From NCBI RefSeq assembly GCF_030384885.1, contig NZ_CP128614.1: DNA of 64,000 nt; one strand, written 5' to 3'. This stretch comes from Escherichia coli. GTDB taxonomy: Bacteria > Pseudomonadota > Gammaproteobacteria > Enterobacterales > Enterobacteriaceae. Both the position numbers and the translations under genes were made by a program. This document shows positions 1,764-55,291 of this stretch, in pieces. The notes beneath the pieces are model-generated. The model searched no databases. It was not told the origin of the DNA and was given only the letters and a program-made list of their open reading frames with translations. The first letter of the stretch is position 1. Each line of letters begins with the position of its first letter.

Positions 1764-1843
1764 TGGCTCAGTTTACCGGTCGGCTCTCGGCGGCCAGCCA
1801 TTGCAGGTATTCGGGCAGGCCGGACGCGGCTTCGACCGCGAGC

Positions 1844-3997: not shown

Positions 3998-4021
3998 TAG
4001 CGGGCGGCCGGAAGGTGAATG

Positions 4022-4861
4022 CTAGGCATGATCTAACCCTCGGTCTCTGGCGTCGCGACTGCGAAATTTCGCGAGGGTTTCCGAGAAGGTGATTGCGCTT
4101 CGCAGATCTCCAGGCGCGTGGGTGCGGACGTAGTCAGCGCCATTGCCGATCGCGTGAAGTTCCGCCGCAAGGCTCGCTGGACCCAGATCCTTTACAGGAA
4201 GGCCAACGGTGGCGCCCAAGAAGGATTTCCGCGACACCGAGACCAATAGCGGAAGCCCCAACGCCGACTTCAGCTTTTGAAGGTTCGACAGCACGTGCAG
4301 CGATGTTTCCGGTGCGGGGCTCAAGAAAAATCCCATCCCCGGATCGAGGATGAGCCGGTCGGCAGCGACCCCGCTCCGTCGCAAGGCGGAAACCCGCGCC
4401 TCGAAGAACCGCACAATCTCGTCGAGCGCGTCTTCGGGTCGAAGGTGACCGGTGCGGGTGGCGATGCCATCCCGCTGCGCTGAGTGCATAACCACCAGCC
4501 TGCAGTCCGCCTCAGCAATATCGGGATAGAGCGCAGGGTCAGGAAATCCTTGGATATCGTTCAGGTAGCCCACGCCGCGCTTGAGCGCATAGCGCTGGGT
4601 TTCCGGTTGGAAGCTGTCGATTGAAACACAGTGCATCTGATCGGACAGGGCGTCTAAGAGCGGCGCAATACGTCTGATCTCATCGGCCGGCGATACAGGC
4701 CTCGCGTCCGGATGGCTGGCGGCCGGTCCGACATCCACGACGTCTGATCCGACTCGCAGCATTTCGATCGCCGCGGTGACAGCGCCGGCGGGGTCTAGCC
4801 GCCGGCTCTCATCGAAGAAGGAGTCCTCGGTGAGATTCAGAATGCCGAACACCGTCACCAT
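4022..4861 (-). CDS. sul1: Sulfonamide-resistant dihydropteroate synthase Sul1
   Basis: Translation from the internal Met ([23 protein letters not shown]…) is Sul1; the ORF-track start at 4948 is an upstream extension. Confidence 0.95.
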
Positions 4862-5202
4862 GGCGTCGGCCTCCGCAGCGACTTCCACGATGGGGATCGG
4901 GCGAGCAAAAAGGCAGCAATTATGAGCCCCATACCTACAAAGCCCCACGCATCAAGCTTTTGCCCATGAAGCAACCAGGCAATGGCTGTAATTATGACGA
5001 CGCCGAGTCCCGACCAGACTGCATAAGCAACACCGACAGGGATGGATTTCAGAACCAGAGAAAGAAAATAAAATGCGATGCCATAACCGATTATGACAAC
5101 GGCGGAAGGGGCAAGCTTAGTAAAGCCCTCGCTAGATTTTAATGCGGATGTTGCGATTACTTCGCCAACTATTGCGATAACAAGAAAAAGCCAGCCTTTC
5201 AT
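4855..5202 (-). CDS. qacEdelta1: Truncated SMR quaternary-ammonium efflux protein QacEdelta1 (3'-conserved segment)
   Basis: 115-aa [30 protein letters not shown]… abutting the sul1 start. Confidence 0.95.
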
Positions 5203-5304
5203 GATATATCTCCCAATTTGTGTAGGGCTTATTATGCACGCTTAAAAATAATAAAAGCAGACTTGACCTGATAGTTTGGCTGTGAGCAATTATGTGCTTA
5301 GTGC

Positions 5305-5364
5305 ATCTAACGCCGGAGTTAAGCCGCCGCGCGTAGCGCGGTCGGCTTGAACGAATTGTTAGAC
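5305..5364 (-). other. attC (59-base element) of the aadA2 cassette
   Basis: Imperfect inverted repeat immediately after the aadA2 stop, with core sites GTCTAAC … GTTAGAT on the cassette strand. Confidence 0.55.
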
Positions 5365-5365
5365 A

Positions 5366-6157
5366 TCATTTACCAACTGACTTGATGATCTCGCCTTTCA
5401 CAAAGCGAATAAATTCTTCCAAGTGATCTGCGCGTGAGGCCAAGTGATCTTCTTTTTGTCCCAGATAAGCTTGCTTAGCTTCAAGTAAGACGGGCTGATA
5501 CTGGGCAGGTAGGCGTTTTATTGCCCAGTCGGCAGCGACATCCTTCGGCGCGATTTTGCCGGTTATTGCGCTGTACCAAATGCGGGACAACGTAAGCACT
5601 ACATTTCGCTCATCGCCGGCCCAGTCGGGCTGCGAGTTCCATAGCTTCAAGGTTTCCCTCAGCGCCTCGAATAGATCCTGTTCAGGAACCGGGTCAAAGA
5701 ATTCCTCCGCTGCCGGACCTACCAAGGCAACGCTATGTTCTCTTGCTTTTGTAAGCAGGATAGCTAGATCAATGTCGATCATGGCTGGCTCGAAGATACC
5801 CGCAAGAATGTCATTGCGCTGCCATTCTCCAAATTGCAGCTCGCGCTTAGCCGGATAACGCCACGGGATGATGTCGTCATGCACGACAAGGGTGACTTCT
5901 ATAGCGCGGAGCGTCTCGCTCTCGCCAGGGAAAGCCGAAGCCTCCATAAGATCATTGAGCAATGCTCGCCGCGTCGTTTCATCAAGCTTTACGGCCACAG
6001 TAACCAACAAATCAATATCGCTGTATGGCTTCAGGCCGCCATCCACTGCGGAGCCGTACAAATGCACGGCCAGCAACGTTGATTCCAGATGGCGCTCAAT
6101 GACGCTTAGCACCTCTGATAGTTGGTTCGAAATTTCGATGGTCACCGCTTCCCTCAT
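5366..6157 (-). CDS. aadA2: Aminoglycoside (3'')(9) adenylyltransferase AadA2 (streptomycin/spectinomycin resistance)
   Basis: 263-aa ORF MREAVTIEISNQLSEVLSVIERHLESTLLAVHLYGSAVDGGLKPYSDIDLL…, recognised as AadA2. Confidence 0.9.
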   Translation of the reverse strand: MREAVTIEISNQLSEVLSVIERHLESTLLAVHLYGSAVDGGLKPYSDIDLLVTVAVKLDETTRRALLNDLMEASAFPGESETLRAIEVTLVVHDDIIPWRYPAKRELQFGEWQRNDILAGIFEPAMIDIDLAILLTKAREHSVALVGPAAEEFFDPVPEQDLFEALRETLKLWNSQPDWAGDERNVVLTLSRIWYSAITGKIAPKDVAADWAIKRLPAQYQPVLLEAKQAYLGQKEDHLASRADHLEEFIRFVKGEIIKSVGK

Positions 6158-6162
6158 GATGT

Positions 6163-6453
6163 CTAACGGGCGAGGTAAGCCGACCGCAGAATGCGGGTCG
6201 GCTTGACCGAAATGTTAGAACCAGAAGCCAAAACGGATAACTTGAATTTGGCGACGGGCGCTAACCGTGAAAAAACGCTGCGCCACCGAGGCGGCACAGC
6301 ACTGCAAAAACGATAGCTGCTTGCGCTTGCTACGCAAGGGCTAGAGGCCAAAAAGACTGAAAACCTGCGCAGCCCATGCAGGCGAAGCCCGGAAAAAAGG
6401 CAAAACAGGCACTGAATAACGCCTGAAAAGCTAAATGCCGTTTGAATAAACAT
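6163..6453 (-). CDS. gcuF: Gene cassette of unknown function gcuF (orfF) of the dfrA12-gcuF-aadA2 array
   Basis: 96-aa ORF sitting between dfrA12 and aadA2 in the same orientation. Confidence 0.6.
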   Translation of the reverse strand: MFIQTAFSFSGVIQCLFCLFSGLRLHGLRRFSVFLASSPCVASASSYRFCSAVPPRWRSVFSRLAPVAKFKLSVLASGSNISVKPTRILRSAYLAR

Positions 6454-6564
6454 GAGCTAAATAAAGCTGGGTTTCAGTGGTGCTAACGTTGGACGTAACG
6501 AGAGCCGGAGCGCAGCGGAGGGAACCAAAATGCGCAGCATTTTGGCGTCCCGTTGACGGAATGG

Positions 6565-7062
6565 TTAGCCGTTTCGACGCGCATAAACGGAGTGGGTGTA
6601 CGGAATTACAGCTTGAATGGTTTCGGTTGAGACAAGCTCGAATTCTGTTTCGTTGAGCATTGGGAAGAAGGCGTCACCCTCGAAGGTTTGATGTACCTCA
6701 GATAGAAACACGCCGTGGGCGTGAGGTAGTGCCAGAGTGTATATCTCAGCTCCGCCCGCGACGTAGAGTTCATTGCCGAGTTCGGATGCCAAAGCGATAG
6801 CGTGCGACAGCGTTGAAACAACTACGCAGCCAGTGGCGCGGTAGTTAGCTTGGCGTGAGATTACCAATGTGTGACGGTTCGGTAGAGGCTTGCCGATAGA
6901 CTCAAAGGTCTTTCGCCCCATGACAACGACTTTTCCCTCAGTGAGTCTGCGAAAAATCTTCTGCTCACCCGGAATTTTCCAGGGGATATTAGGACCATTG
7001 CCAATAACCCGATTGGCTCCCATCGCAGCAACGAGATAAATGCGTACTGATTCCGAGTTCAT
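6565..7062 (-). CDS. dfrA12: Trimethoprim-resistant dihydrofolate reductase DfrA12
   Basis: 165-aa ORF MNSESVRIYLVAAMGANRVIGNGPNIPWKIPGEQKIFRRLTEGKVVVMGRKTF…, recognised as DfrA12. Confidence 0.92.
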   Translation of the reverse strand: MNSESVRIYLVAAMGANRVIGNGPNIPWKIPGEQKIFRRLTEGKVVVMGRKTFESIGKPLPNRHTLVISRQANYRATGCVVVSTLSHAIALASELGNELYVAGGAEIYTLALPHAHGVFLSEVHQTFEGDAFFPMLNETEFELVSTETIQAVIPYTHSVYARRNG

Positions 7063-7063
7063 A

Positions 7064-7135
7064 TGGCTAACTTTGTTTTAGGGCGACTGCCCTGCTGCGT
7101 AACATCGTTGCTGCTCCATAACATCAAACATCGAC
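7064..7135 (-). other. attI1 recombination site / first-cassette boundary (approximate)
   Basis: …CTAAAACAAAGTTAGCC followed by the dfrA12 ATG on the cassette strand, between Pc/intI1 and the first cassette. Confidence 0.5.
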
Positions 7136-7206
7136 CCACGGCGTAACGCGCTTGCTGCTTGGATGCCCGAGGCATAGACTGTACAAAAAAACAGTCATAA
7201 CAAGCC

Positions 7207-8075
7207 ATGAAAACCGCCACTGCGCCGTTACCACCGCTGCGTTCGGTCAAGGTTCTGGACCAGTTGCGTGAGCGCATACGCTACTTGCATTACAGCTTAC
7301 CAACCGAACAGGCTTATGTCCACTGGGTTCGTGCCTTCATCCGTTTCCACGGTGTGCGTCACCCGGCAACCTTGGGCAGCAGCGAAGTCGAGGCATTTCT
7401 GTCCTGGCTGGCGAACGAGCGCAAGGTTTCGGTCTCCACGCATCGTCAGGCATTGGCGGCCTTGCTGTTCTTCTACGGCAAGGTGCTGTGCACGGATCTG
7501 CCCTGGCTTCAGGAGATCGGAAGACCTCGGCCGTCGCGGCGCTTGCCGGTGGTGCTGACCCCGGATGAAGTGGTTCGCATCCTCGGTTTTCTGGAAGGCG
7601 AGCATCGTTTGTTCGCCCAGCTTCTGTATGGAACGGGCATGCGGATCAGTGAGGGTTTGCAACTGCGGGTCAAGGATCTGGATTTCGATCACGGCACGAT
7701 CATCGTGCGGGAGGGCAAGGGCTCCAAGGATCGGGCCTTGATGTTACCCGAGAGCTTGGCACCCAGCCTGCGCGAGCAGCTGTCGCGTGCACGGGCATGG
7801 TGGCTGAAGGACCAGGCCGAGGGCCGCAGCGGCGTTGCGCTTCCCGACGCCCTTGAGCGGAAGTATCCGCGCGCCGGGCATTCCTGGCCGTGGTTCTGGG
7901 TTTTTGCGCAGCACACGCATTCGACCGATCCACGGAGCGGTGTCGTGCGTCGCCATCACATGTATGACCAGACCTTTCAGCGCGCCTTCAAACGTGCCGT
8001 AGAACAAGCAGGCATCACGAAGCCCGCCACACCGCACACCCTCCGCCACTCGTTCGCGACGGCCTTGCTCCGCAG
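7207..8075 (+). pseudogene. intI1: intI1 truncated at its 3' end by IS26
   Basis: N-terminal ~289 aa of IntI1 ([44 protein letters not shown]…) run into the IS26 inverted repeat at 8076. Confidence 0.9.
7294..7322 (-). promoter_or_regulatory. Pc: Integron cassette promoter Pc, variant PcW with TGN-extended -10
   Basis: On the cassette strand: TGGACA, 17-bp spacer, then TGG-TAAGCT; the corresponding intI1 codon 32 encodes Pro (IntI1 P32/H39). Confidence 0.75.
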
Positions 8076-8895
8076 GGCACTGTTGCAAAGTTAGCGATGA
8101 GGCAGCCTTTTGTCTTATTCAAAGGCCTTACATTTCAAAAACTCTGCTTACCAGGCGCATTTCGCCCAGGGGATCACCATAATAAAATGCTGAGGCCTGG
8201 CCTTTGCGTAGTGCACGCATCACCTCAATACCTTTGATGGTGGCGTAAGCCGTCTTCATGGATTTAAATCCCAGCGTGGCGCCGATTATCCGTTTCAGTT
8301 TGCCATGATCGCATTCAATCACGTTGTTCCGGTACTTAATCTGTCGGTGTTCAACGTCAGACGGGCACCGGCCTTCGCGTTTGAGCAGAGCAAGCGCGCG
8401 ACCATAGGCGGGCGCTTTATCCGTGTTGATGAATCGCGGGATCTGCCACTTCTTCACGTTGTTGAGGATTTTACCCAGAAACCGGTATGCAGCTTTGCTG
8501 TTACGACGGGAGGAGAGATAAAAATCGACAGTGCGGCCCCGGCTGTCGACGGCCCGGTACAGATACGCCCAGCGGCCATTGACCTTCACGTAGGTTTCAT
8601 CCATGTGCCACGGGCAAAGATCGGAAGGGTTACGCCAGTACCAGCGCAGCCGTTTTTCCATTTCAGGCGCATAACGCTGAACCCAGCGGTAAATCGTGGA
8701 GTGATCGACATTCACTCCGCGTTCAGCCAGCATCTCCTGCAGCTCACGGTAACTGATGCCGTATTTGCAGTACCAGCGTACGGCCCACAGAATGATGTCA
8801 CGCTGAAAATGCCGGCCTTTGAATGGGTTCATGTGCAGCTCCATCAGCAAAAGGGGATGATAAGTTTATCACCACCGACTATTTGCAACAGTGCC
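8076..8895 (-). mobile_element. IS26: IS26 (820 bp), wild-type transposase allele
   Basis: 14-bp terminal inverted repeats GGCACTGTTGCAAA at 8076-8089 and 8882-8895; no flanking target-site duplication. Confidence 0.95.
8128..8832 (-). CDS. tnpA26: IS26 transposase Tnp26 (Gly184)
   Basis: Translation MNPFKGRHFQRDIILWAVRWYCKYGISYRELQ… with …KRIIGATLGF…. Confidence 0.95.
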   Translation of the reverse strand: MNPFKGRHFQRDIILWAVRWYCKYGISYRELQEMLAERGVNVDHSTIYRWVQRYAPEMEKRLRWYWRNPSDLCPWHMDETYVKVNGRWAYLYRAVDSRGRTVDFYLSSRRNSKAAYRFLGKILNNVKKWQIPRFINTDKAPAYGRALALLKREGRCPSDVEHRQIKYRNNVIECDHGKLKRIIGATLGFKSMKTAYATIKGIEVMRALRKGQASAFYYGDPLGEMRLVSRVFEM

Positions 8896-9217
8896 CTCAA
8901 TAACGTGATCGAGGCCGATCACGGAAAGCTCAAGATACTGATCAAGCCGGTGCGCGGTTTCAAATCGATCCCCACGGCCTATGCCACGATCAAGGGATTC
9001 GAAGTCATGCGAGCCCTGCGCAAAGGACAGGCTCGCCCCTGGTGCCTGCAGCCCGGCATCAGGGGCGAGGTGCGCCTTGTGGAGAGAGCTTTTGGCATTG
9101 GGCCCTCGGCGCTGACGGAGGCCATGGGCATGCTCAACCACCATTTCGCAGCAGCCGCCTGATCGGCGCAGAGCGACAGCCTACCTCTGACTGCCGCCAA
9201 TCTTTGCAACAGAGCCC
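8896..9217 (+). mobile_element. IS6100: IS6100 3'-terminal fragment, truncated by IS26
   Basis: Encodes the C-terminal ~88 aa of an IS6-family transposase (…ALRKGQARPWCLQPGIRGEVRLVERAFGIGPSALTEAMGMLNHHFAAAA*) and ends with the IS6100-type inverted repeat TTTGCAACAGAGCC at 9204-9217. Confidence 0.85.
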
Positions 9218-9654
9218 GCCGTGCTAGTCTGCTCGGTGATGGTGGAGTGAAGCCAACCCGCAATCGGGTTATGAATCTGCATCGCGATTCGCAATCAGCT
9301 GTCTCTTGAGCATGTCGAACTCCTGCGATGTTATCTCGCCGTGCTCGTGCTGCTACACCAACTTGTCCAACTCATCCGCCACACCGCTCCCCACCACCTG
9401 CGATGGCCAGGTTGTTTGCTGGGCGCATTGGCGGAGTATCGTCTCGACCCGGGACACCCACACCGGCACAACCTTACGGGAGTGATTCACTGTCAAAGAA
9501 TCGGCCCGGTGCTCTGACGCAAGTATCGGGATGGTCACCATTTGTAAGCCGTAGACCTGAGTGGTGATCAAGACTTCGATACCACCGACCGTACCGGTAC
9601 TAATCGACGACGGTCGTGTTCGTCGCCTGCCGCAGGGACTCTGCACACCTCCGT

Positions 9655-10239
9655 TTACGCATGTGCCTGGAGGAGTTGGAAATCGTCGTGTTCGGGAAAC
9701 ATTAAACACAGGATGGCAGCGATCTGAGCCAGCACATGATCAGCTAGCTCACCATCCGGATCGACGGCCCACTGCATCGTCGCGCCAGCGATGACCGAGT
9801 GCAGGAGCAACTCAGCTGCCGCAGGAGCACCTGGGGGCAGTCGCTTGCGGATCCCCTCCACCACCGCGCGGTTCCGCTGGATCGCAAGCGTGCGTAGCTC
9901 CGGCACCTGGAGCTCGTACCAGGAGATGAGATAGTTCACCGAGAAGTCGTTGCGAGTGTTCATGCTCCGAACGAGCACCTGCAAAAATTCCCAGAGCCCT
10001 TGCGGCCCTGCGCCTATCGGTATCGCATTCAGGTAATGCCGCACCTGCTCGACGCCGCGCTCCATCATCCTCACCAGCAGCGTATCGCGGTTGGTGAAGC
10101 GCTGGATTAACGCTGCGCGGGAGAGCCCCACCTCCTTTGCTACTCCGCTGAGCGTGAACTCTATGGGACCGCAACGCTTCAGCACTACGGTGGCGGCCTC
10201 GAGTACCTCGTCATCGGACTTGAGCTTGGGGCGGGGCAT
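9655..10239 (-). CDS. mphR(A): TetR-family repressor MphR(A)
   Basis: 194-aa TetR-like ORF directly downstream of mrx and mph(A) in the canonical order. Confidence 0.88.
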   Translation of the reverse strand: MPRPKLKSDDEVLEAATVVLKRCGPIEFTLSGVAKEVGLSRAALIQRFTNRDTLLVRMMERGVEQVRHYLNAIPIGAGPQGLWEFLQVLVRSMNTRNDFSVNYLISWYELQVPELRTLAIQRNRAVVEGIRKRLPPGAPAAAELLLHSVIAGATMQWAVDPDGELADHVLAQIAAILCLMFPEHDDFQLLQAHA

Positions 10240-11477
10240 CAGTGTTCACCTTCTGTATGGGTTGGGGCGGAGGCTGTGGCTGCCGCCGCCATTGTAGCAA
10301 ATTGAAGACGGAGCGAGAGTAGAGCCACGAGCCCCGCAAACACGGCCGATACAACGAGGCCAGGGAGCGGACCAGCAAGGTCGACAAACGCGCCGGCCGC
10401 AAGCATAACCATGGGCGAGGCTGACAGCATCACCGCCGAGACCGTGCCGAGTACCCGGCCGAGAAGTTCTGGCGGCGTGCGGTTGTAGATGGCAGCGTTG
10501 AGAATGGGAGAGACTGAGCCGGTCAGCAGTCCCACGAGCGCGCCCAACAACATCAGCACCGGCACGCCTGGCAACTGTGAAAGCAGAAGCGAGCCCACCG
10601 CAGAGCCACAAAATGCCACCGCCAGCCAGTTCTGCGCTGATATCCGGGCGCCGACCGACGCATGAATGGCAATGCCAAGGAGACCACCAGCCCCCATCAT
10701 TGAGGAGAACAGCCCGAGCTCTGCTACTTGGCGTCCTGCATCTACAAACAGCGCAGGCATGATGACGCTGCCGTTGGCGCCAACGATGCCCACGAAGATC
10801 ATCACTATACCAAAGAGAGGGCGCAGCAGGGGTTCGCTCCAGAGAAAAGCGACGCCGGCGCGCATGGAGAGAGTCGCCGTCGTGGTCATCGTCCGAGCGG
10901 CACGCGCGGGAAGCACCCACGCGCCGAGCAGACCTGCAAGGACGGAGCAGAACGCCGTCAGCCCGAGCGTTGGCGCAGCGCCAAGCAGGCCGATTGCGGC
11001 CCCCCCAAGGGCCGGGCCACCTAGAATCGCGACGTTCCCGATCACCGCTTTCAGTGACGAGACGCGCTCAACGGAGAGCCCGGCGACGTGGCCGAGTTTG
11101 GGCAGCTCACTGTCCTGCGCGGCCATACCGGGTGCGTCGAACGCAGCACCGAGCACCACGCAAGCGATCAGCCCAGTGTTCGAGAGGGCGCCAACGGCAT
11201 CGAGCAGTGGGATGCTCGCCATGGCCACGCCGCCCACCACACCCGAGATCAATGCGACGGGCGCGCGCCCGAACCGATCGACGAGGCCACCACCAACCCA
11301 CGCGCCGATGATGGTCGCGATGACGCTGCTAGCGGCCGTGGCGCCCGCCCAGGCCGCGCTCTTTGTATGAGACAGGACGAACCATGGAAGCGCGAGGGCC
11401 GCCACCGCGTTGCCGATCCGGAAGAGAAAGGTCGCCGCGAACAGCGTCGCGAGCGGGCTATATCGACGTTCGCTCAT
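10239..11477 (-). CDS. mrx: MFS-type membrane protein Mrx
   Basis: 412-aa multi-transmembrane ORF between mph(A) and mphR(A). Confidence 0.88.
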   Translation of the reverse strand: MSERRYSPLATLFAATFLFRIGNAVAALALPWFVLSHTKSAAWAGATAASSVIATIIGAWVGGGLVDRFGRAPVALISGVVGGVAMASIPLLDAVGALSNTGLIACVVLGAAFDAPGMAAQDSELPKLGHVAGLSVERVSSLKAVIGNVAILGGPALGGAAIGLLGAAPTLGLTAFCSVLAGLLGAWVLPARAARTMTTTATLSMRAGVAFLWSEPLLRPLFGIVMIFVGIVGANGSVIMPALFVDAGRQVAELGLFSSMMGAGGLLGIAIHASVGARISAQNWLAVAFCGSAVGSLLLSQLPGVPVLMLLGALVGLLTGSVSPILNAAIYNRTPPELLGRVLGTVSAVMLSASPMVMLAAGAFVDLAGPLPGLVVSAVFAGLVALLSLRLQFATMAAAATASAPTHTEGEH

Positions 11478-12379
11478 TCCGCTGCGGCGAGCTGCGCCTT
11501 CGCCGCAGCGAGGTACTCTTCGTTACCCGAGTCGAGGGCGAAGAGTGCGTAGGTGACCGCCCCGAACGCAAGGCGCTCCGCGATGTGGTGGGCGAGCCGC
11601 GGCCACACCCGGCCACCGGCCGCTTCATACGTGAGGAGGAGCTTCGCGAGCCCCTCTTCACCAAAGACCATAAGGTGCGCGGCCATGTCGATGGCAGGGT
11701 CATCAACGCGGGCCTCGCTCCAGTCGATCATCCCGCTGACGCGCTCCGTGTTGTCGATGAGCACATGGCCCACGTAGAGATCGCCATGCACCACCACGGA
11801 GAAATCTGGCCACGACGAATCGTCGTCGAGCCAGCGCTGCCACCGGTGGAGGCGCTTGTCGTTCACCACGAACTCGCGTCGGACGCGGTCAACGTCGTCG
11901 GCCACCTTCTGACGGGCCTGCGTCGGTGTACGGATGAGCATCCCCGCATCCACGGCGGCGGAAATGGGGACGGCATGCAGGGCGGCGAGCGCGGTCGCGA
12001 AGCTCTCCGCGAAGACCTCCGAGTCCTGCGGCACGACCCAGTCGGGCGTGGACGAACCAGGCTGGATGACCATCGCAGTCGAGTCTTCGAGCATGGGATA
12101 GGCAACGAGCTCGGCGTTGGCCACGCGCCAGTCCGGCACCGCGAACGGCAGGCGATTCTTGAGCATTGCCAGCACCCGCGCCTCTGGTTCGACCTTCGCG
12201 CTTACCTCGGCTCGGCGCGGGATGCGCAGCACCCACCGACGTCCATCGTCGACGGTGGCGATCACGATCCTATAGTCGAGCCCAAGCTCATTGACAGTCA
12301 GCGGGCCATGGAGCTTGAGCCCATGTCGGGCTGCAAGTGCGTACAGTTGGGAGGTATCGGCGGTCGTGACTACGGTCAT
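11474..12379 (-). CDS. mph(A): Macrolide 2'-phosphotransferase Mph(A)
   Basis: 301-aa ORF MTVVTTADTSQLYALAARHGLKLHGPLTVNELGLDYRIVIATVDDGRRWVLRIPRR…, recognised as Mph(A). Confidence 0.95.
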   Translation of the reverse strand: MTVVTTADTSQLYALAARHGLKLHGPLTVNELGLDYRIVIATVDDGRRWVLRIPRRAEVSAKVEPEARVLAMLKNRLPFAVPDWRVANAELVAYPMLEDSTAMVIQPGSSTPDWVVPQDSEVFAESFATALAALHAVPISAAVDAGMLIRTPTQARQKVADDVDRVRREFVVNDKRLHRWQRWLDDDSSWPDFSVVVHGDLYVGHVLIDNTERVSGMIDWSEARVDDPAIDMAAHLMVFGEEGLAKLLLTYEAAGGRVWPRLAHHIAERLAFGAVTYALFALDSGNEEYLAAAKAQLAAAE

Positions 12380-46975: not shown

Positions 46976-48160
46976 TCATGACTGTCCCTTGTTCATCTTA
47001 TCAGCATGCTTACGCAGGTACTCTTTCAGGTCAGCATGAGCGTTGATGATATCGTTCATTTCATCATTGGTCAGAACAAGCGTGTAAGTATCAGTACTGA
47101 CAGATTCACCTTCTTTAAGCTTGGCTTCTTCAGCAATACGTTCAAAAATCGGGATCGCGGTGTCTGCAATGACGGTCACAGTCTTTTTGTTCAGAACGCT
47201 GGACATGGAAGGTGCTTTACCTGCCGGGTTCTGTTTAGGAGCGCTGTCCTTTGGAGCTGGAGCCGGTTCCTGTACCGGTGGCGTATCCAGCGTCTCCGTA
47301 TTGCTTTCATCGTTCAGTTGATCCGGTACCGGGGTGTTATCGGTAGTATCATCTGCCGGTTGCTCAGCACCGATGTTTTCCGGAGTCTGCGGATCTGCCA
47401 TGCGCTCTTCTACCTTGGCAGCTTTGACGAATTTCAGCGTGTTTTTCGTCGCCTTGCCATAGATGGAGATCGCTTTGTTGATGTTATCTACCGCATCCTC
47501 ACCGCTGTACATATACTCGTCCAGTGCAACGTACATGCTCACCTGATCGCTCACAAGCATGGTCTGTAGTTCAGAAGGCAGGTCCAGTACGCGAACCATC
47601 TGGCGAAGATGCTGCTCTGATTTACCACGTTTTTTTGCCAGTTCCGCAAAGGTCTTAGGCTCTTCTTTATCTTCAACCAGACGCTTAATTGAAAGCGCTT
47701 CAGCTACGACAGACAGCGCCAGGTTGGAGTTGCCGGTCAGGGTGAAGAGTTCTGCTTTTGAAGCGCTACCGCGAAACTCTTCGCAGCGAATACGAGTAAT
47801 GCGTTCACGCCCTTCTGCTTCCAGCTGGCGGTTTGCAATAGCGATGGAACGGATACGGCAAGCCCCCTGACGCAGTACAGGTACGCCATTAACCATCTGA
47901 ACAACGATAGGCGTCACGCTGAACGGGTCTTCCATGTAGGCATCGGCCAGGCTGTTCAGGTGTTCCACAACGTGAGGCATTGAATAGTAGAGCTCGCCCA
48001 TACCGGCCGTGCGGGTGTTAAAGCCTTCCTGCTCTACAACAACCGAAGGGTCAATGATAAGGCCGTTGCCTTTACGGGCACCGTTACCAGTGCGTTCCAG
48101 GTAACCACGAAGGCTGATTTCGTTGCTGTTGTTTTTTACTTCAGTTTCGATTGCGGACAT
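46976..48160 (-). CDS. ParB/KorB-like protein (ParB N-terminal nuclease-like domain, HTH, Pro/Glu-rich linker)
   Basis: 394-aa ORF; ParB-box-like stretch (…VPVLRQGACRIRSIAIANRQ…) and a low-complexity acidic/proline linker; one palindrome copy lies ~90 bp upstream of the start. Confidence 0.5.
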   Translation of the reverse strand: MSAIETEVKNNSNEISLRGYLERTGNGARKGNGLIIDPSVVVEQEGFNTRTAGMGELYYSMPHVVEHLNSLADAYMEDPFSVTPIVVQMVNGVPVLRQGACRIRSIAIANRQLEAEGRERITRIRCEEFRGSASKAELFTLTGNSNLALSVVAEALSIKRLVEDKEEPKTFAELAKKRGKSEQHLRQMVRVLDLPSELQTMLVSDQVSMYVALDEYMYSGEDAVDNINKAISIYGKATKNTLKFVKAAKVEERMADPQTPENIGAEQPADDTTDNTPVPDQLNDESNTETLDTPPVQEPAPAPKDSAPKQNPAGKAPSMSSVLNKKTVTVIADTAIPIFERIAEEAKLKEGESVSTDTYTLVLTNDEMNDIINAHADLKEYLRKHADKMNKGQS

Positions 48161-48250
48161 TTTTGTTCTCTTTTTTGGTTGGTTGTTTAACTGCGCTACA
48201 ACACAACAATACCAGGTTCGACATTTTTCCTAATAGGTTGCGGAGAAGAA

Positions 48251-48261
48251 AAAGTAACTTT
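48251..48261. repeat. Palindrome AAAGTAACTTT, copy j (upstream of ParB-like gene)
   Basis: Read directly (GAAAAAGTAACTTTTTTT). Confidence 0.6.
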
Positions 48262-48376
48262 TTTTAAAAATTTTCCTGAGGCAATACTACTCGATCCGTC
48301 CGTTTTAAATCTTCACAACAGTGGGCCGTTTTTACGTTTAAGCAAAATAACTGGTTCAGAAGGTGACTCAGAGAGA

Positions 48377-48387
48377 AAAGTTACTTT
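48377..48387. repeat. Palindrome AAAGTTACTTT, copy k (intergenic)
   Basis: Read directly (GAAAAGTTACTTTTCCGG). Confidence 0.6.
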
Positions 48388-49261
48388 TCCGGTTGTCTGG
48401 GCCAGTGATGGGAGAGTGGCAGGACAGGAATGGCTAAACCGGTGCGGGTCTCTTGTAAGTCGCAGGGGATTCAGGAGATATAGAGGTAAACTGGTACGTT
48501 CAGTTTTTGGATTGAGCCGGGCTTTTGGCCCGGGCTTAAGGAAGCAGAAATTTGAACGAACTGGCAGGTAATGCTTTATGCCGCCGACAGCTGGCCGTCA
48601 GTGCTTTGCTGTTCTGGTTTGACAGTTGGGGGATAACCGGCAGTTAGCCGCTGGCATTCCGCATCACAGAAAGCCCTGAGGTTGCTGAAGACGGACTCCA
48701 TGAAATCAGCATGAGCATACGAGTCTACAGGACGTGTCTTGTTATCTTTCATCTTGTTCTCCTCAATCATTATTAAAACCAGCGGATTTAGTTTCTGGCG
48801 CTCCATCTGCTGACCGGCTTTCCCAGAGAGCAGCGATGTGTCGGGTTCTTTTTCTCATTTTATCGTTTTCATCGGGCCCATCCGGGCGTATAAGAGACCG
48901 ATTTGGCATGTTTAGGAAACGTACTGGCGTAATTAAAAGCTGAGGTTGGATTTGGAATAAAAGGATGCTTTTCCCGTTTGTCGGGTCTTTCGCCACCGCT
49001 GCACGATGATTCTGTCAGGCATTCTGCGCCCTCCCAGGCTGCACATCTGGAAACAAGCGTTGGGATGTTCCCTTCCCCTGCTCACCGTAGAAAGATCGGC
49101 AAGTCCCGACGGTCGTTCCGTACGAGCCGGGTCCAAATAATGAATAAATAAAACGCCGCTTCAATTGTATTGACAATAGAAGTCAGGAGGATCATAGTGT
49201 CATTCATGGTGCGGCTTTCGCACCACCGCCCCGGCGGTACCGGGCAGAACTGGAGTACCTC

Positions 49262-50206
49262 ATGAAACTTTCCCGTCAGACGACTTCTGATACTTCTGTT
49301 GATGGCCGTTCACGCGCATATGCCTGGGGCCGTGTCCATTATTTCATTATCGAACATGCACCAATGGCTGAGCTGGTCGCTATTGACGAGCTGCTGGAAA
49401 AAGCTGGCTGGAGCAATGACGGCTGTCCGAACTATGAGAAAGATGACGAGTTTGGTAATGCTGGTTACAGCTGTGGTTACTGGATCGATATTGACAGCGT
49501 GGGAAGCTTCAAGGCTGACTACAAACGTCTTAAGGGGGAGATTAGTGCGCATATCGCCTCAAAGGCGGCAGAGGTGGAGATCCGCGTACTGGACTCGATG
49601 TCCGACAAAGAATGTAAAGATGTTGCCTCGGTGGCATCTACTGTTCGCCGTGACTTACGTACGCAGTCCGAATCGCTTCATTCACTGCGTACAATCGTAA
49701 CGGTTGATCATTACAATCCCTATGTGACCACCAGCCGCCCGCTGAGCATTTCCGCCTGGACACTTATCCACGACTGTCTGAAAACAGGCACCATCAATGA
49801 CGTCTGTTCACGGTTGAGTTCATTAATCCTGCACTCTGAAGCCGCGATTGCCCGTTGTAAGGGAAGCTCCGACTACTCTTCGGAACACGCTCAGCTATCG
49901 TTTTTTGCTGGTAACGACTATGTCACCAGACGCACCCTTGTTGATGCAGCTCACGAAGAGGCTCTGCGAATGAACCGCCGCTTTGATGAACGCATTGCAA
50001 TGAACGCGGATTCTGATGCCAGAAGGCTCCAGTGCGAATTCAACCTTAGCAACCATGTCGTACAGCGTAGGACCGTTGAATCTGCTCATATCCAGGCACT
50101 CAATGAAGACGTCACCCGTTCACAGGCGGAACCACGCTGCCCTGGAAAGCTTCTTCTGAATATGACCAGTCATGAGGAAGTGCGGGACTCACTGAGCGCC
50201 TGTTAG
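49262..50206 (+). CDS. Hypothetical protein
   Basis: 314-aa ORF, first of four co-directional ORFs. Confidence 0.45.
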   Translation: MKLSRQTTSDTSVDGRSRAYAWGRVHYFIIEHAPMAELVAIDELLEKAGWSNDGCPNYEKDDEFGNAGYSCGYWIDIDSVGSFKADYKRLKGEISAHIASKAAEVEIRVLDSMSDKECKDVASVASTVRRDLRTQSESLHSLRTIVTVDHYNPYVTTSRPLSISAWTLIHDCLKTGTINDVCSRLSSLILHSEAAIARCKGSSDYSSEHAQLSFFAGNDYVTRRTLVDAAHEEALRMNRRFDERIAMNADSDARRLQCEFNLSNHVVQRRTVESAHIQALNEDVTRSQAEPRCPGKLLLNMTSHEEVRDSLSAC

Positions 50207-50302
50207 TCCAGCGACACCCCCTGCGGCTCTACTACCGGGCCGCAGTCTGCTCCTGCCCAGATGGTGCCAGTGGTGTAATGAATTTGTTTAATAAGGCTAA
50301 GT

Positions 50303-50905
50303 ATGATGAATAAAGAACAACTAATCGACAAACTGGAACGCGTGGTATGTGGTCAGTACTCCTACGAAATGCAGGAGCTTGCGTATTCGGCCCTCTGCTG
50401 CATTAAAGGCACCCCGGACGACTGCGCTAAGTTCCCTGTTACGCGTCCGCTGCCTGACACCTTAGTGGACGTATGGGACGAAATCGGGCAATACCTTGGC
50501 ACAGGCAAAGCCATTGAAACTCGCAGTTGCGGCGTTTCGCTTCTGCTTCATGGACACTGCTACGATTCAAATCATGTGCTTTACTGGCGCAATGCTGGCG
50601 CACTTCCAGCAGCTTGCGATACGCCACTGGCTGGTGGGTCTCGCAAACTGTTCACCTGCTCAGCCTGTGGAGTGGACGGTCTGGATGAACCACCTGAAAC
50701 CAGTTGCCACTGCTGCACAGAGGGGGCCCACTGGGTTGAGAGCAGGCTCTTCACCTCCGGGCAGGCAGACCCTGAAGAATTTAGACCCGTGGCGGTCGTG
50801 AAAGAGTGTGCAGGCTCAACGCCGGATGATCGGCTCATCTGGAGTGTGATTGAACAGCTCAACGGCGAACTGGCGGAAGGCGATAAACTATTTAAGCGAC
50901 GCTGA
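50303..50905 (+). CDS. Cysteine-rich hypothetical protein
   Basis: 200-aa ORF with many Cys residues (CC, C-x2-C, CHCC). Confidence 0.45.
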   Translation: MMNKEQLIDKLERVVCGQYSYEMQELAYSALCCIKGTPDDCAKFPVTRPLPDTLVDVWDEIGQYLGTGKAIETRSCGVSLLLHGHCYDSNHVLYWRNAGALPAACDTPLAGGSRKLFTCSACGVDGLDEPPETSCHCCTEGAHWVESRLFTSGQADPEEFRPVAVVKECAGSTPDDRLIWSVIEQLNGELAEGDKLFKRR

Positions 50906-50958
50906 CAGATCACGGCAGCATTTATAACAGACGAACTCCAGAATAATTTAAAGCAACC

Positions 50959-51315
50959 ATGAACATGAAAAAGCCCAAAGCTGCATTACAGAATGCCATG
51001 AAAGAAGATGTGCCAGCTGTGACACAGATTCAGATGCGATCTACGGTTTCCAGAAAGGTTCGCTATGTAAAACAGGCAAATCGAGAGGGTCTGAAATTAT
51101 CTGAGTGGATGTCGCGGCATCTCGACGCTGTCTGTGATACCGCAGATGAGATTCATAAAGGCAAACGCTCAACTCCGGTTGCGCCTGGGAAGATTCCCCC
51201 AGAGGTATACCAGGTGATATACGATCAGTGCGGCGGGTTCGTGGAGTGTGATGCTAATGCCCAGGTTATCTGGGAAGCCTGCCGTAATGCCATTCTTAAC
51301 GGAGACAAAGGGTAA
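50959..51315 (+). CDS. Hypothetical protein
   Basis: 118-aa ORF. Confidence 0.4.
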   Translation: MNMKKPKAALQNAMKEDVPAVTQIQMRSTVSRKVRYVKQANREGLKLSEWMSRHLDAVCDTADEIHKGKRSTPVAPGKIPPEVYQVIYDQCGGFVECDANAQVIWEACRNAILNGDKG

Positions 51316-51345
51316 ACGGCAGGTATCGCCTGTCATTTTACCCTT

Positions 51346-51564
51346 GTGAGGACAATACTGATGAACCATGAGAGCCGAACTGTATACCTGAACACGGCCA
51401 TTGAGGCCCTGCTGAAAGCTGAGGCGGCTCTGAACGATCTGGCATTAGCCTATGAGCTTAAACCTGATGAAAAGGCAAGCGCATGCCATCCCAGAACCGG
51501 CACACTTTCCACTGCGTCCCAGGTAAAAAAACTCCGCCGTGTCCTTGAGAAGCAGAAGGTATGA
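51346..51564 (+). CDS. Hypothetical small protein
   Basis: 72-aa ORF. Confidence 0.3.
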   Translation: MRTILMNHESRTVYLNTAIEALLKAEAALNDLALAYELKPDEKASACHPRTGTLSTASQVKKLRRVLEKQKV

Positions 51565-51573
51565 AGGGCTGCA

Positions 51574-51876
51574 TCAGCCAGGCCCGGATATAAATACATG
51601 CTCTGCCAGGTGAGTACCACTGCCCGGTAGCCGAATGATAAGTTTTGATTTCACGGTTGCAATTTCTCCCTCTGGCATCACTGCTCCACGATGCACCCCG
51701 ATCAGCTTAGCGTCTGAAAATGAAGATGCACCGGACCTGCATGAAGCGGAACGGTGCCCAGCTGAGTGTTTGTGGGCACAATGAACCGCAATTTCATGAT
51801 GGGAATGAAAGATGGCTGGTGGCCCGCTGATATGAACGCTTACCCTGCATAACGTTACTAACCACAATCTTTTCAC
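51574..51876 (-). CDS. Hypothetical protein (His/Cys-rich)
   Basis: 100-aa ORF. Confidence 0.3.
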   Translation of the reverse strand: MKRLWLVTLCRVSVHISGPPAIFHSHHEIAVHCAHKHSAGHRSASCRSGASSFSDAKLIGVHRGAVMPEGEIATVKSKLIIRLPGSGTHLAEHVFISGPG

Positions 51877-51888
51877 TAAAAGAAAAAA

Positions 51889-51917
51889 GGGTTCCTCCGC
51901 TTTAGAGGAACCCTTTC
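51889..51917 (-). terminator. Terminator-like hairpin
   Basis: GGGTTCCTC-N7-GAGGAACCC flanked by A/T runs. Confidence 0.45.
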
Positions 51918-51970
51918 AAAAGGTGCCGATGGCATACTAATCCACACCCTGAAAAGAGGGGGGTTGCCCC

Positions 51971-53309
51971 CATAAGCGCTAACTTAAGGGTTGAACCATC
52001 TGAAGAATGCGACGCCTCGGTGCCTCGTTAAGACGATGCCTCGCGTTCTTCAATTGCGTTTTGTAGGCTGTCAGGGATACTGTCCCACGAATGGCCACCT
52101 GTAAGCTCCAGATGACCATTTTTGTTATTCTCCACAACGAGTTAGTTCTTCTTTTCGGATCCGGCACTTCTGGGGGGGAAATCCAGCGATGGCTGGATTA
52201 TGTCGTCAATTAAAAATGCGGCGAGTAGATTAGCAAATATCCACGCTTTCGCGAGTTCAGGTTCCTTTGCACGCAAAGCATCCAGGTGCAGCAAACTTTT
52301 GAGCCGCTTAAAAGCCAGTTCAATTTGCCATCGCAGACGGTAACAATCAGCCACTTGCTCTGCTGAATATTCATCTTCCGGTAATGATGTTAGCAATAGC
52401 ACATGGCCCGCTGCTTCCAGCGTTTCCGCCTGAACTACTCGTCCTTTTCGACGATTCTCGCTGAGCAGTCGGGTTTTACTGATTAATGCTTTTTCGGGAG
52501 GAAGTGATACGGCAATGAGACGTGCCGGAAAGGGAGCTCCGGCTTTTTTATTACCTGAATTGCCTATCATTACAGTGGTTTCACCGTTCTTACCGCAATC
52601 CAGCCCGCGCAGAAAACCCATCATGTCAAAGCGCATTCCTTCTGCAGTTAACCAGCGCAATCCTCGCCAGTGAACCCGGACGATATAATCAGCTTCTCCA
52701 AAAGCAAGTGAGCGGATACATTCGGGACGCGAACCGAATCCCCGGTCAGCAATGCGTATCTCGTCTGCCGTTTGCGCAAATCGGTCCAGCCGTTCAGCGT
52801 CTCTGCTGTCGGTTAGCTCAAAATCAGTGAACTGACAGGTATGAGGATCATATCCCATATGTAGTCGCCATTCAGCGCTGCCGCCCCCGGGCGCACTGAT
52901 TGCTGTTCCATCGACAAGACGCAATCTCTTTCCGCTTGTACAACCCGTAACTGCGGCGCGTACAGCAAGTGTTTGTGCGGCAAGTATGCCAAACCAGTCG
53001 GCGGCATTCCGCAGCCGCTTCAGGAGAGCCACGTCAGATAATGTTGCAACGTCATGGAGCTGAGCCCATGCAGTGACTTCACGTAATGACATCCCCCCGG
53101 GGCCGTAAGCCAGCCCCAGACGTAGCAGAGTTGCAGCATCACGAATTTCGCGGCGGCGGGTTAGAGCCCCGGCATTACGTGCCGAAGTATCCAGTTCTTC
53201 GGGCTTACCAATATGGGCCAGAATTGCTGACCAGTTATCGTGAGAGTAATTCATCGGCACGTTAAATCATATCAGGCGTAATACCACAACCCTTAAGTTA
53301 GCGCTTATG
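51971..53309 (-). mobile_element. IS186: IS186 (IS4 family) with 11-bp target-site duplication GGGGTTGCCCC
   Basis: 23-bp terminal inverted repeats CATAAGCGCTAACTTAAGGGTTG at both ends; direct repeats GGGGTTGCCCC at 51960-51970 and 53310-53320. Confidence 0.9.
52142..53254 (-). CDS. IS186 transposase
   Basis: Translation MNYSHDNWSAILAHIGKPEELDTSARNAGALTRRREIRD… matching IS186 transposase as recalled. Confidence 0.9.
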   Translation of the reverse strand: MNYSHDNWSAILAHIGKPEELDTSARNAGALTRRREIRDAATLLRLGLAYGPGGMSLREVTAWAQLHDVATLSDVALLKRLRNAADWFGILAAQTLAVRAAVTGCTSGKRLRLVDGTAISAPGGGSAEWRLHMGYDPHTCQFTDFELTDSRDAERLDRFAQTADEIRIADRGFGSRPECIRSLAFGEADYIVRVHWRGLRWLTAEGMRFDMMGFLRGLDCGKNGETTVMIGNSGNKKAGAPFPARLIAVSLPPEKALISKTRLLSENRRKGRVVQAETLEAAGHVLLLTSLPEDEYSAEQVADCYRLRWQIELAFKRLKSLLHLDALRAKEPELAKAWIFANLLAAFLIDDIIQPSLDFPPRSAGSEKKN

Positions 53310-53332
53310 GGGGTTGCCCCCCTCTTTGTCAG

Positions 53333-53548
53333 CTACTTACCGGATTCGTAGGCCAGGATAGCAAATACCTCCCTTGTTCCGTCTTTCATCCGCAACTCGC
53401 AAAGCGAGTTTCGTGTGAGCCAGGTGAATATCAACAGCGTTAAACAAACTATTAATATGCACAAAACAATGGGTTGGTTCGGCATTTTCATGGCCTTCTT
53501 CTCCTTGCATTTAAGCAGGCAAGAGGCTACGCTGTGTGTGACTAGCAT
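53333..53548 (-). CDS. Small membrane protein between IS186 and IS150
   Basis: 71-aa hydrophobic ORF; its terminator hairpin is the IS186 target. Confidence 0.3.
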
Positions 53549-53589
53549 ACAGGGGCCTCGGGTTGTACTGACCCCAGAAAGTTGGACAG

Positions 53590-54441
53590 TTAAACACGAG
53601 GCATATAGGTCTGATTCCGATATTCAATTGGAGTCAGACCTTTTAATTTCAGGCTAATTCTTCTGCTGTTGTAGTATTCAATATATTCCGTAACAGCATC
53701 CTTCAGCTCGCTTATATTACTGAACTCATCAAGATAAAAACACTCCGACTTTAAGGTTCCAAAGAAACACTCCACCACAGCATTATCCAGACAATTGCCT
53801 TTTCTGGACATGCTTTGTTTAATACCATGTTCTTTAAGGATATTTTGATATCTTCTCATACGATACTGCCATCCCTGGTCAGAGTGCAGAACAGGATGCT
53901 CGTGAGGATTAAGCTTTTTGAATGCCTGATCGAGCATATTCTCGACCATGTTCATCACTGGTCTTTCCGAAAGGCTGTAAGAAATAACTTCGTTGTTGAA
54001 GAGATCTATTACTGGAGACAAATACAGCTTGCGCCCATTGACTGCAAATTCAGTAACATCGGTAACCCACTTCTCGTTTGGCCGCGTAGCCTTGAAATCT
54101 CTTTGGAGAACATTGGGGGCGGTTTGCCCTACCTCTCCTCTGTAAGAGCGGTATCGCTTGACCTTAATCGCTGCCTTCAGTGAGAGGATTCCCATCAGGC
54201 GCTGAACAGCTTTATGGTTAATCTGTTTCCCTTCTCGATGAAGAGACAGCGTTACCCTACGGTATCCGTATCGGCCTCTATTCTCATGATAAATCTCACC
54301 AATACGCTTTTTAACGTCCGCATACTTGTCAGGCTTGCTGAGAGCCTTTAGATGGTAATAAAACGTACTGCGCGGTATCTCCGCAGCCCTGAGAAGCTCA
54401 TCAAGAGGATAAAACTGCCTTAGCTCGTTGAGTACTTTCAC
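53590..54441 (-). CDS. insK: IS150 OrfB (InsK-like DDE integrase domain; OrfAB made by -1 frameshift)
   Basis: 283-aa ORF overlapping orfA by 4 bp in the -1 frame. Confidence 0.9.
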
Positions 54442-54959
54442 TTTTTCGTGGGATGAGCTAAGGCTTTCAGCTTTTTTAGATACACAAGCCGCGTTTCAAG
54501 AAATCGAACTTGCCTTTCAAGATCCTCAATGCGTCGGTCTTTTGACAGCTCCAATGCTGATGCCGCTTTTTCTGGATCAACTGATATTGCAATGTTTCTT
54601 TTGGTGCCAATCTTGAGCGCGCGTAAACCAGCTTCTCCGCGCTCTTCATAAACCTTCAGCCACCTGGCTACAGAACCACTACCAGCAAGCATAAAGTGAG
54701 CAGCAGCCTGATTAAGGGACATGTGCTGCTCGATCACCGCTTTCACGACCTTAATACGCAACTCAGGATCAGCACTAACACCTTTAGGTTTGGGAATTAA
54801 ACCTTTTTCTCCATGTTTTTCATAGAGGGCAACCCATGTCCTGACCTGGGTTCGGGGGACACCAAAACGTGCCGAGATGATCCTGTAACCATCATCAGTA
54901 GTGAAGTAGTGATTCACGACTTCAAGGCGCTTTTCAAAAGGGTATTTTGGCTTTGACAT
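54438..54959 (-). CDS. insJ: IS150 OrfA (InsJ-like, HTH)
   Basis: 173-aa ORF MSKPKYPFEKRLEVVNHYFTTDDGYRIISARFGVPRTQVRTWVALYEKHG…. Confidence 0.9.
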   Translation of the reverse strand: MSKPKYPFEKRLEVVNHYFTTDDGYRIISARFGVPRTQVRTWVALYEKHGEKGLIPKPKGVSADPELRIKVVKAVIEQHMSLNQAAAHFMLAGSGSVARWLKVYEERGEAGLRALKIGTKRNIAISVDPEKAASALELSKDRRIEDLERQVRFLETRLVYLKKLKALAHPTKK

Positions 54960-55291
54960 ATCAGGGGCTATTCCATTTCATCGTCCAACAAAATGGGTGC
55001 AGTACAGGTTAATTGAAAAATTACTCGGGGCTTTCTGCTTTTACCACAGTCAAACAGTGTTACCGCTGGCTGGGGCAAAAGCCTCCAGCACCAGCGTCAT
55101 TATATCACTCTGCCCTGATCAGCCAAACACCCTGCCTGCATAAATCATTGATTTATAATTTATTTGACATGAGTCACTTCCGGTTGTCGGAGACAGTCTT
55201 TTTACACTAAAGAAAAGGGTAACGGGCAGCTGCTTGGTCGGAACATACAGTGCAGTTCCTGCCCGTTTAATTTCCGGATGCAATGGTAGGA

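Follow-up and report, generated by a model that had tools for sequence, protein, structure and literature searches.

What role a block of four adjoining genes plays in the backbone of a large conjugative plasmid is the question raised by positions 49262-51564 of a 64,000-nucleotide stretch of Escherichia coli DNA (contig NZ_CP128614.1; this whole stretch is referred to below as the window). The favoured answer, held at a probability of roughly 0.4, is that the cluster is a self-repressed accessory, establishment or host-interference (anti-defence-like) operon and not part of the partition or transfer machinery. The four plus-strand open reading frames proposed by a first-pass annotation of the window were all confirmed in position and are as follows.

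Gene 1: 49262-50206, plus strand, 314 amino acids (aa), labelled DUF5417 in RefSeq
Gene 2: 50303-50905, plus strand, 200 aa, RefSeq start at 50306, labelled 'hypothetical'
Gene 3: 50959-51315, plus strand, 118 aa, RefSeq start at 50965, labelled 'hypothetical'
Gene 4: 51361-51564, plus strand, 67 aa from the RefSeq start or 72 aa from a GTG at 51346, labelled 'hypothetical'

The ATG of gene 4 at 51361 has a better Shine-Dalgarno sequence (GAGGA) than the GTG at 51346. On comparative grounds the four are real genes and not chance open reading frames, and they are intact throughout IncHI2, practically all of whose multidrug-resistance plasmids have them; they are at least 95% identical across about 990 public plasmids and show ratios of nonsynonymous to synonymous divergence (dN/dS) of 0.10-0.29 against two diverged lineages. 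Plasmid records matching the 3.6 kb around the cluster number 1048, nearly all of them conjugative MOBH/MPF_F plasmids of 200-380 kb typed IncHI2A, from Escherichia, Salmonella, Enterobacter, Klebsiella and Citrobacter hosts, and 983 of the 1048 match with at least 80% query coverage. Since the relaxase region shows the same conservation of at least 95% in 964 plasmids, the cluster is taken as core to IncHI2. Taken alone, the figure of about 990 plasmids carries little weight, because the IncHI2 copies have barely diverged (dS 0.02-0.03, or 1-3% synonymous divergence). Against pEC-IMP, which represents a second IncHI2 lineage, dN/dS of the cluster genes was 0.14-0.21, and against pN354-1 (IncHI1B-type, with synonymous sites saturated or nearly so) it was 0.29 for gene 3 and 0.10 for gene 4, while the DUF5417 domain of gene 1 gave a dN of 0.30 with saturated dS; dS exceeded 1 for genes 3 and 4 and for this domain. 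Gene by gene, the ratios were 0.21 for gene 1, 0.20 for gene 2, 0.14-0.29 for gene 3 and 0.10-0.14 for gene 4.

These figures bear on whether the cluster is hitch-hiking cargo with no selectable role in present hosts, its uniformity reflecting only a recent clonal spread of IncHI2. The small dS among IncHI2 copies would fit such an origin, as would the loss of genes 1-3 from the IncHI1 plasmid R27 and the varying gene content of the slot that the cluster occupies (both described below), whereas dN/dS of 0.1-0.3 persisting even against pN354-1, the breadth of query coverage among the plasmid records, a promoter-operator island conserved far above its flanks and the persistence of the encoded domains in hundreds of phages all speak for constraint, and an origin as mere cargo is considered improbable.

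Regarding transcription, a consensus scan placed a sigma-70-like promoter (TTGACA-17-CATAGT, plus strand, 10 of 12 consensus matches) at 49170-49198, which is kept in the pN354-1-type locus L003 and in the Salmonella plasmid locus L009. Neither a second promoter-like site nor, after this promoter, a terminator-like site was found on the plus strand of 48000-52200. Because there is one promoter-like site, no terminator-like site and gaps of only 30-96 bp between the genes, the layout suggests that the four genes would form a single transcription unit of the IncHI2 core backbone driven from this promoter. Folding of the 5' untranslated region (UTR) resembled that of shuffled sequence (z -0.75), and a structured leader was rejected; no RNA family of Rfam was detected in the cluster or upstream of it, the only match being sok, downstream.

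A candidate operator, the 22-bp inverted repeat (9-4-9) TTCAATTGT-ATTG-ACAATAGAA at 49160-49181, is centred on the -35 box of this promoter. Across relatives it takes the form TTC[A/T]ATTGT-ATTG-ACAATAGAA, being a perfect palindrome in L003 and in the Salmonella plasmid loci L008 and L009. Even with up to three mismatches allowed, the window has this single copy, and the repeat is present as one copy in every relative that has a ribbon-helix-helix (RHH) gene corresponding to gene 3, with none in 62 kb of R27, which is without the RHH gene. When the DNA between the ParB-like gene upstream and the first plus-strand gene was aligned for IncHI2, pN354-1 and one Salmonella plasmid, background identity was about 55%, and the conserved islands were 13-bp palindromes, a gene of 58 aa and a promoter block of about 110 bp, which is about 90% identical and comprises the promoter, the 22-bp inverted repeat and the 5' UTR.

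The product expected to act at this site is that of gene 3, whose residues ~19-56 (VTQIQMRSTVSRKVRYVKQANREGLKLSEWMSRHLDAV) show an RHH pattern, the rest forming a C-terminal domain. Gene 3 itself has no Pfam match even at E<=10. Three of the seven members of its family match RHH_10 (best 1.2e-3), one matches a NikA-like model (2.7e-4), and Q25, M26, R27 and T29, putative beta-strand residues, are invariant in the family. The best match of the family profile in the Protein Data Bank (PDB), at E=0.027, is the N-terminal domain of AcrIF25, which a 2026 preprint describes as an RHH domain that is dispensable for anti-CRISPR activity; the preprint also describes RHH-regulated anti-defence operons (Aca14) (bioRxiv 10.64898/2026.07.27.740549). 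Alignment of gene 3 with the single sequences of Arc and CopG by hhalign was not significant, and the C-terminal half gave only a weak match, to a PHROG of unknown function. Thus gene 3 probably encodes an RHH DNA binder, the evidence being suggestive and not conclusive, and its action as a repressor at the inverted repeat has moderate support, because the repeat is unique, lies in a conserved island, co-occurs with the RHH gene and is absent from R27.

In the mechanism proposed here, the gene 3 product would bind the inverted repeat over the -35 box and keep the operon repressed once the plasmid is established in a host; in a naive cell that the plasmid has just entered, expression would burst until repressor builds up (zygotic induction). 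The products of genes 1, 2 and 4 would act on the host cell and not on plasmid replication, partition or DNA transfer, a role that is suggested by association only. Such an operon would have its analogues in the acr-aca operons, the ArdK/CUP-controlled genes of the IncN leading region and the kil-kor loci of IncP plasmids.

The associations come in part from gene 1. Its product has an N-terminal alpha/beta domain of about 95 residues of the DUF5417 (T4/RB69 Frd.1) type, a helical middle and a long C-terminal helix, and the AlphaFold2 (AF2) model has a pLDDT of 86.7. The Pfam match to PF17438 (DUF5417) scores 24.7 bits against a gathering cut-off of 23.9 and its alignment is limited to residues 51-91, while phrog_1254 matches residues 27-92 at 7e-8. 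An exhaustive search gave 56 cluster representatives of homologues, 120-630 aa long; DUF5417 was matched in 34 of 44 homologues (best 1.9e-16), with otherwise no informative Pfam domain. As a stand-alone protein DUF5417 occurs in 727 phage records, nearly all T4-like; in Shigella phage Shf125875 the gene is annotated as RB69 frd.1-like and lies between gene 32 and frd. In one phage-like contig, a long DUF5417 homologue has a Tad2-like gene as its neighbour at a distance of two genes.

The C-terminal part of gene 1, at residues ~205-290 (window ~49870-50130), carries a helical repeat of about 40 aa with the motif (R/Q)R..h.E.AH.EAL.hN, in two copies around residues 230 and 275. This AHxEAL repeat, which no Pfam model matched, is present in 0-5 copies in each of the gene 1 relatives (P0087-P0144) and also in proteins without DUF5417. 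Gene 1 had no match to PDB sequences up to E<=10, and a profile-search match of the DUF5417 domain to RidA/YjgF in the PDB (E~0.2) was rejected as non-significant. No papers were found on DUF5417 or on the RefSeq protein accessions of the cluster, and neither Frd.1 nor DUF5417 is known to have a particular role.

Gene 2 is the 200-aa protein that had been described as cysteine-rich and possibly metal-binding. Its 13 cysteines (6.5% of residues) bear out the first part of that description, while the second holds plausibly for one 45-residue module alone, the other nine cysteines lying outside the conserved module. The protein is a mosaic. Only IncHI2 plasmids have gene 2 in full length, with identity of at least 99% in 970 records; residues 41-95 resemble the C-terminus of a 210-aa protein from Klebsiella MOBH plasmids, and residues 108-156 contain the module RKLFTCSxCGxxGLDEPxExxCxCxxxGAHWVE, which is shared with many Enterobacter and E. 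coli prophage proteins. In the prophage proteins, most of which also have DUF551, the module lies near the N-terminus. One module homologue (P0018) belongs to the early-left operon of a lambdoid prophage, where its neighbours are an Ead/Ea22 gene on one side and a gene for the restriction-alleviation protein Lar on the other. An alignment of 20 module sequences showed C119, C122, C135 and C137 to be at least 90% conserved, H143 and W144 to be invariant, and H136 and C138 to be variable; the arrangement of a CxxC, a second cysteine pair and a histidine is zinc-knuckle-like, and metal binding by this region is plausible. Ligand geometry could not be interpreted in the AF2 model (mean pLDDT 47.4), and no PDB sequence matched gene 2 up to E<=10. 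Other candidates for gene 2 were rejected: WD40 repeats reported by a profile search were non-significant summed-repeat artefacts, a cryptic DUF551 domain at residues 41-95 was dropped for want of any Pfam match in gene 2 or its Klebsiella relative, and homology with the protein at the gene 2 position in pN354-1 was rejected at E=0.23.

Gene 4 matches phrog_19934 (9e-11) and had no match in the phage genome collection; it is the most widely kept member of the cluster. Searches of the four proteins against PADLOC and NCBIfam returned nothing meaningful, and isolated, weak matches to ZorB (0.009) and the LmbU C-terminus (0.009) were discarded as chance. The view of the first-pass annotation that the proteins have no recognisable function holds for biological role, but domains are recognisable in gene 1 (DUF5417/Frd.1), gene 3 (the RHH family) and gene 2 (the prophage module).

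Antitoxin and toxin genes classically share the layout seen here, in which an RHH N-terminus is extended by a C-terminal part and a small gene comes next, and the cluster might accordingly be an addiction or 'kil'-type module in which one or more products are toxic when derepressed and the RHH protein serves as antitoxin or repressor, giving post-segregational stabilisation. Its surroundings would suit such a function: copies of hok/sok adjoin the cluster, relBE adjoins it in pEC-IMP, and a ParE-like gene directly follows the DUF5417 gene in contig L010. However, genes 1, 2 and 4 matched no toxin family in Pfam, NCBIfam or PADLOC, nor did any product of the cluster, and gene 4, the sole candidate in the toxin position, survives in R27 without the RHH gene, where an unneutralised toxin is hard to reconcile with the facts; an addiction function is thus considered very unlikely.

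A host-directed or establishment role is suggested because of five associations, namely the place of DUF5417 in T-even early regions, a DUF5417 gene in the stbABC/oriT region of an IncN plasmid, the Tad2-like neighbour, the Lar neighbour and the likeness of the RHH domain to that of AcrIF25. Three results weigh against it. Leading-region genes of a conjugative plasmid are those among the first ~30 to reach the recipient, across oriT from the relaxase (PMC11541004); oriT of the present plasmid has the trhR-side operon on one side and mobI on the other (window ~31.1-31.9 kb), and the cluster is about 17 kb from it on the relaxase side, which is the lagging side under the usual convention. No homologue of an anti-defence protein was found in Pfam, PHROGs, NCBIfam, PDB sequences or fold searches, with no dedicated anti-defence HMM library used. 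A Frpo-like single-strand promoter was sought in 48800-49262 and rejected, as no long hairpin was present (folding z -1.4 and -2.8).

A more specific proposal takes genes 1 and 2 as founders of two families of phage and plasmid host-interference or anti-defence effectors, set in an RHH-gated, zygotically induced operon: one family would combine DUF5417/Frd.1 with variable numbers of AHxEAL repeats, the other would consist of the mosaics with a CxxC...CxC...H knuckle found in lambdoid 'ea' regions. This proposal is regarded as unlikely.

Related plasmids show which parts of the locus can be dispensed with. In the IncHI1 plasmid R27 (locus L015, 13480-14340) less than 900 bp separate hok from the ParB-like gene, which is kept; the interval holds a gene 4 homologue that is intact (66 aa, 69% identity, E=1e-25), together with some 18 codons from the start of DUF5417 and the opening codons of a gene 2 of the pN354-1 type, while the RHH gene and the promoter block are gone entirely. 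As a conjugative plasmid R27, which is thermosensitive, is fully functional. Since it functions without genes 1-3, these genes do not belong to the replication, partition and transfer machinery common to H-group plasmids. Pseudogenes in related plasmids, which the first-pass annotation had raised as a possibility, thus occur in R27, where genes 1-3 are 5' remnants or absent, while the IncHI2 copies are uniformly intact and constrained. The R27 locus is a deletion derivative, perhaps formed by recombination between palindrome copies, because such copies sit in that interval. A 381-nt plus-strand coding sequence annotated by RefSeq at the R27 locus is antisense to the gene remnants and probably spurious.

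In pN354-1-type plasmids (L003, 3365-5876; L008/L009, 7212-9879) six extra small genes lie between the conserved promoter block and DUF5417; none has a Pfam match, and one encodes an 82-aa RHH paralogue, shorter than gene 3. The position of gene 2 is occupied in pN354-1 by an unrelated 189-aa protein. With six further genes and an unrelated gene 2 behind the same promoter block, the locus is therefore a variable cargo slot, bounded by a promoter that is conserved and by a 3' end (DUF5417, RHH and small gene) that is conserved as well.

Upstream of the cluster, the features that bear on its regulation are the following.

ParB-like gene: 46976-48160, minus strand, 394 aa, an orphan divergent from the cluster, with a match to HTH_ParB (PF17762, 7e-6)
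Palindrome pair: 13 bp, AAAAGTnACTTTT, as AAAAGTAACTTTT at 48250-48262 and AAAAGTTACTTTT at 48376-48388, 91 and 217 bp from the start of the ParB-like gene
58-aa gene: 48576-48752, minus strand, WP_001371930.1, conserved, outside the operon

The divergent ParB-like gene, with its ParB helix-turn-helix domain, was correctly recognised in the first-pass annotation. The supposed 1.1-kb intergenic region with two palindromes needs revision: both palindromes are real, but the region holds the 58-aa gene, and the palindromes adjoin the ParB-like gene and not the cluster, from whose promoter they are about 800 bp distant. The 58-aa gene is 100% identical in pEC-IMP, has 49% protein identity in pN354-1 and matches no family.

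The ParB-like protein also matches TIGR00180 (5e-7), phrog_1033 (1.6e-21, residues 24-255) and the DNA-binding domain of Caulobacter ParB (1.6e-4); a GxxRxxS-like motif, GACRIRS, is seen, there is no Pfam ParBc match, and no adjoining ParA gene is present in the annotation. The palindrome core AAGTnACTT occurs in 17 copies in the window, each extending to AAAGTnACTTT, and the 13-bp pattern with at most one mismatch was observed 14 times against an expectation of 0.28. All copies are restricted to the IncHI backbone, between 16694 and 63114 (for example at 18257, 19158, 28163, 30782, 31223, 31708 and 36569). Roughly 12 fall between genes, as a rule 65-220 bp ahead of a gene start; of these, two are in the oriT intergenic region and two before the ParB-like gene. 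The remaining copies lie inside mobH, traD and a trhR-side gene and at the trhF/trhH junction. R27 (loci L014/L015) has 16 copies, several at equivalent positions; several of the intragenic copies in traD, mobH and the trhF/trhH junction are shared between IncHI2 and IncHI1, and a Klebsiella MOBH plasmid has six copies in 750 bp. The palindromes probably serve as operators for a global regulator of the KorB kind. The ParB-like protein is the most evident candidate for binding them since, unlike the RHH gene, it is kept wherever the sites occur. Nothing was found in the literature on this palindrome in a plasmid context or on an IncHI ParB-like regulator, and the palindrome and ParB-like system is arguably a more interesting lead than the cluster.

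Whether the cluster itself belongs to this network, as part of the plasmid's own regulation and maintenance, with, for example, the RHH protein co-regulating genes related to transfer or partition, is a separate matter. The divergent arrangement of the ParB-like gene and the cluster is kept in IncHI2, in pN354-1-type plasmids and in the Salmonella loci L008 and L009; a palindrome lies about 95 bp upstream of the DUF5417 gene in pN354-1, L008 and L009; palindromes flank oriT and occur in or near tra genes; and the NikA-like match of one RHH family member is to a family of relaxosome accessory proteins. Yet the nearest palindrome in IncHI2 is the one some 800 bp from the cluster promoter, the inverted repeat linked to the RHH gene is found at this single promoter only, and R27, with its ParB-like gene and 16 palindromes, is without genes 1-3, so that the network needs none of them. 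Membership of the cluster in the network is therefore doubtful, and the self-repressed accessory or establishment operon remains the preferred explanation.

The wider neighbourhood was read by reference to the Salmonella plasmid pSTM6-275, with which the window is collinear (record coordinate = window + 160489), the exception being an inverted IS186/IS421. By the annotation of that plasmid the Tra1 region spans window ~23-42 kb, in the order trhR-side operon, oriT, mobI, mobH (traI), traD and a DUF4400 gene; past Tra1 there follows a minus-strand array of small genes with the ParB-like gene at its head, then the four plus-strand cluster genes, and 3' of these IS186, IS150 and hok/sok. The IS186/IS421 copy, at window ~51971-53310, has the orientation opposite to that of the pSTM6-275 copy. 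It is followed by an IS150 element (53333-55093 region) between two sok-like RNA matches (53489-53643 and 54930-55093, both under the Rfam gathering score), together with a hok-family gene.

At the 3' end of the cluster a recombination boundary is apparent between window 51346-52000 and the pEC-IMP locus (L006, 5060-5700). Between these two IncHI2 lineages dS is 0.02-0.03 in genes 1-3, rising to 0.35 in gene 4, and beyond that point the two sequences are unrelated, with relBE and an additional plus-strand gene of 106 aa in pEC-IMP and, in the present window, about 400 bp of unannotated sequence and then IS186. At the opposite end of the window, positions 1-12000 form a high-GC segment (up to 65% GC) ahead of the backbone, with zero palindrome copies; within it, 4558-8895 matches a class 1 integron/IS26 stretch of pSTM6-275, of which 4558-8075 is inverted.

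Among the plasmids that spread multidrug and colistin resistance through Salmonella, E. coli and Enterobacter, those of the IncHI2 group are prominent, and much of their backbone of about 200 kb is unannotated. The present analysis concerns one 'hypothetical' block of that backbone which is core to IncHI2, dispensable in the sister group IncHI1, probably self-repressed and built of modules from phage early regions, and it offers a way into the T4 Frd.1/DUF5417 family, which counts hundreds of members in phages. If the proposal of two effector families were true, the operon would help a major mcr-1 and multidrug-resistant IncHI2 lineage to establish in new Enterobacterales hosts; otherwise the cluster is one more accessory slot of a large plasmid. 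The cluster looks like an ordinary accessory operon of a clinically important plasmid family, and its domain composition and regulation can be stated more precisely than before.

Among known systems, the kil-kor system of the IncP plasmids RK2/RP4 has the KorB protein with 13-bp palindromic OB sites, and the kle and klc operons. The IncHI backbone resembles it in having a ParB-family protein, a dispersed 6-1-6 palindrome near promoters and inside genes, and small-gene operons that are candidates for repressor control; it differs in having no adjoining ParA/IncC partner, in that binding of the palindrome by the ParB-like protein is putative, and in that the four-gene cluster has its own operator.

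The acr-aca operons are similar to the cluster in being short operons of small or unknown genes with a DNA-binding protein and an inverted repeat over the promoter, and the best PDB match of the gene 3 family is the RHH domain of AcrIF25. Unlike them, the cluster is without a known Acr or anti-defence match, its RHH gene is the third of four and not the last, it lies on a 250-kb plasmid backbone off the presumed leading region, and its repression is a candidate only.

In the IncN leading region (pKM101/R46), ArdK/CUP repressor control of anti-restriction genes has a role in establishment (PMC6289460). An IncN plasmid carries a DUF5417 gene of 225 aa, with 47% identity in the domain; it points toward oriT, and is flanked by a MucR-type regulator on one side and by stbABC/oriT on the other. 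The cluster differs in having an RHH candidate in place of ArdK and a different operator, and only the N-terminal 98 residues are common to the two DUF5417 proteins.

Similarly, the DUF551-annotated proteins of lambdoid early-left ('ea') regions share the gene 2 module at 40-70% identity, and both are mosaics of short modules, whereas gene 2 has no detectable DUF551, its module is central and not near the N-terminus, and the flanking modules are unrelated. The closest likeness of gene 1 to a named phage protein is to Frd.1 of T4 and RB69 (phrog_1254), to which its N-terminal domain is 37-51% identical, with a Foldseek TM score of 0.86 on a protein of phage phiC120; the phage proteins are single domains of 80-120 aa, whereas gene 1 adds about 220 helical residues with the AHxEAL repeats.

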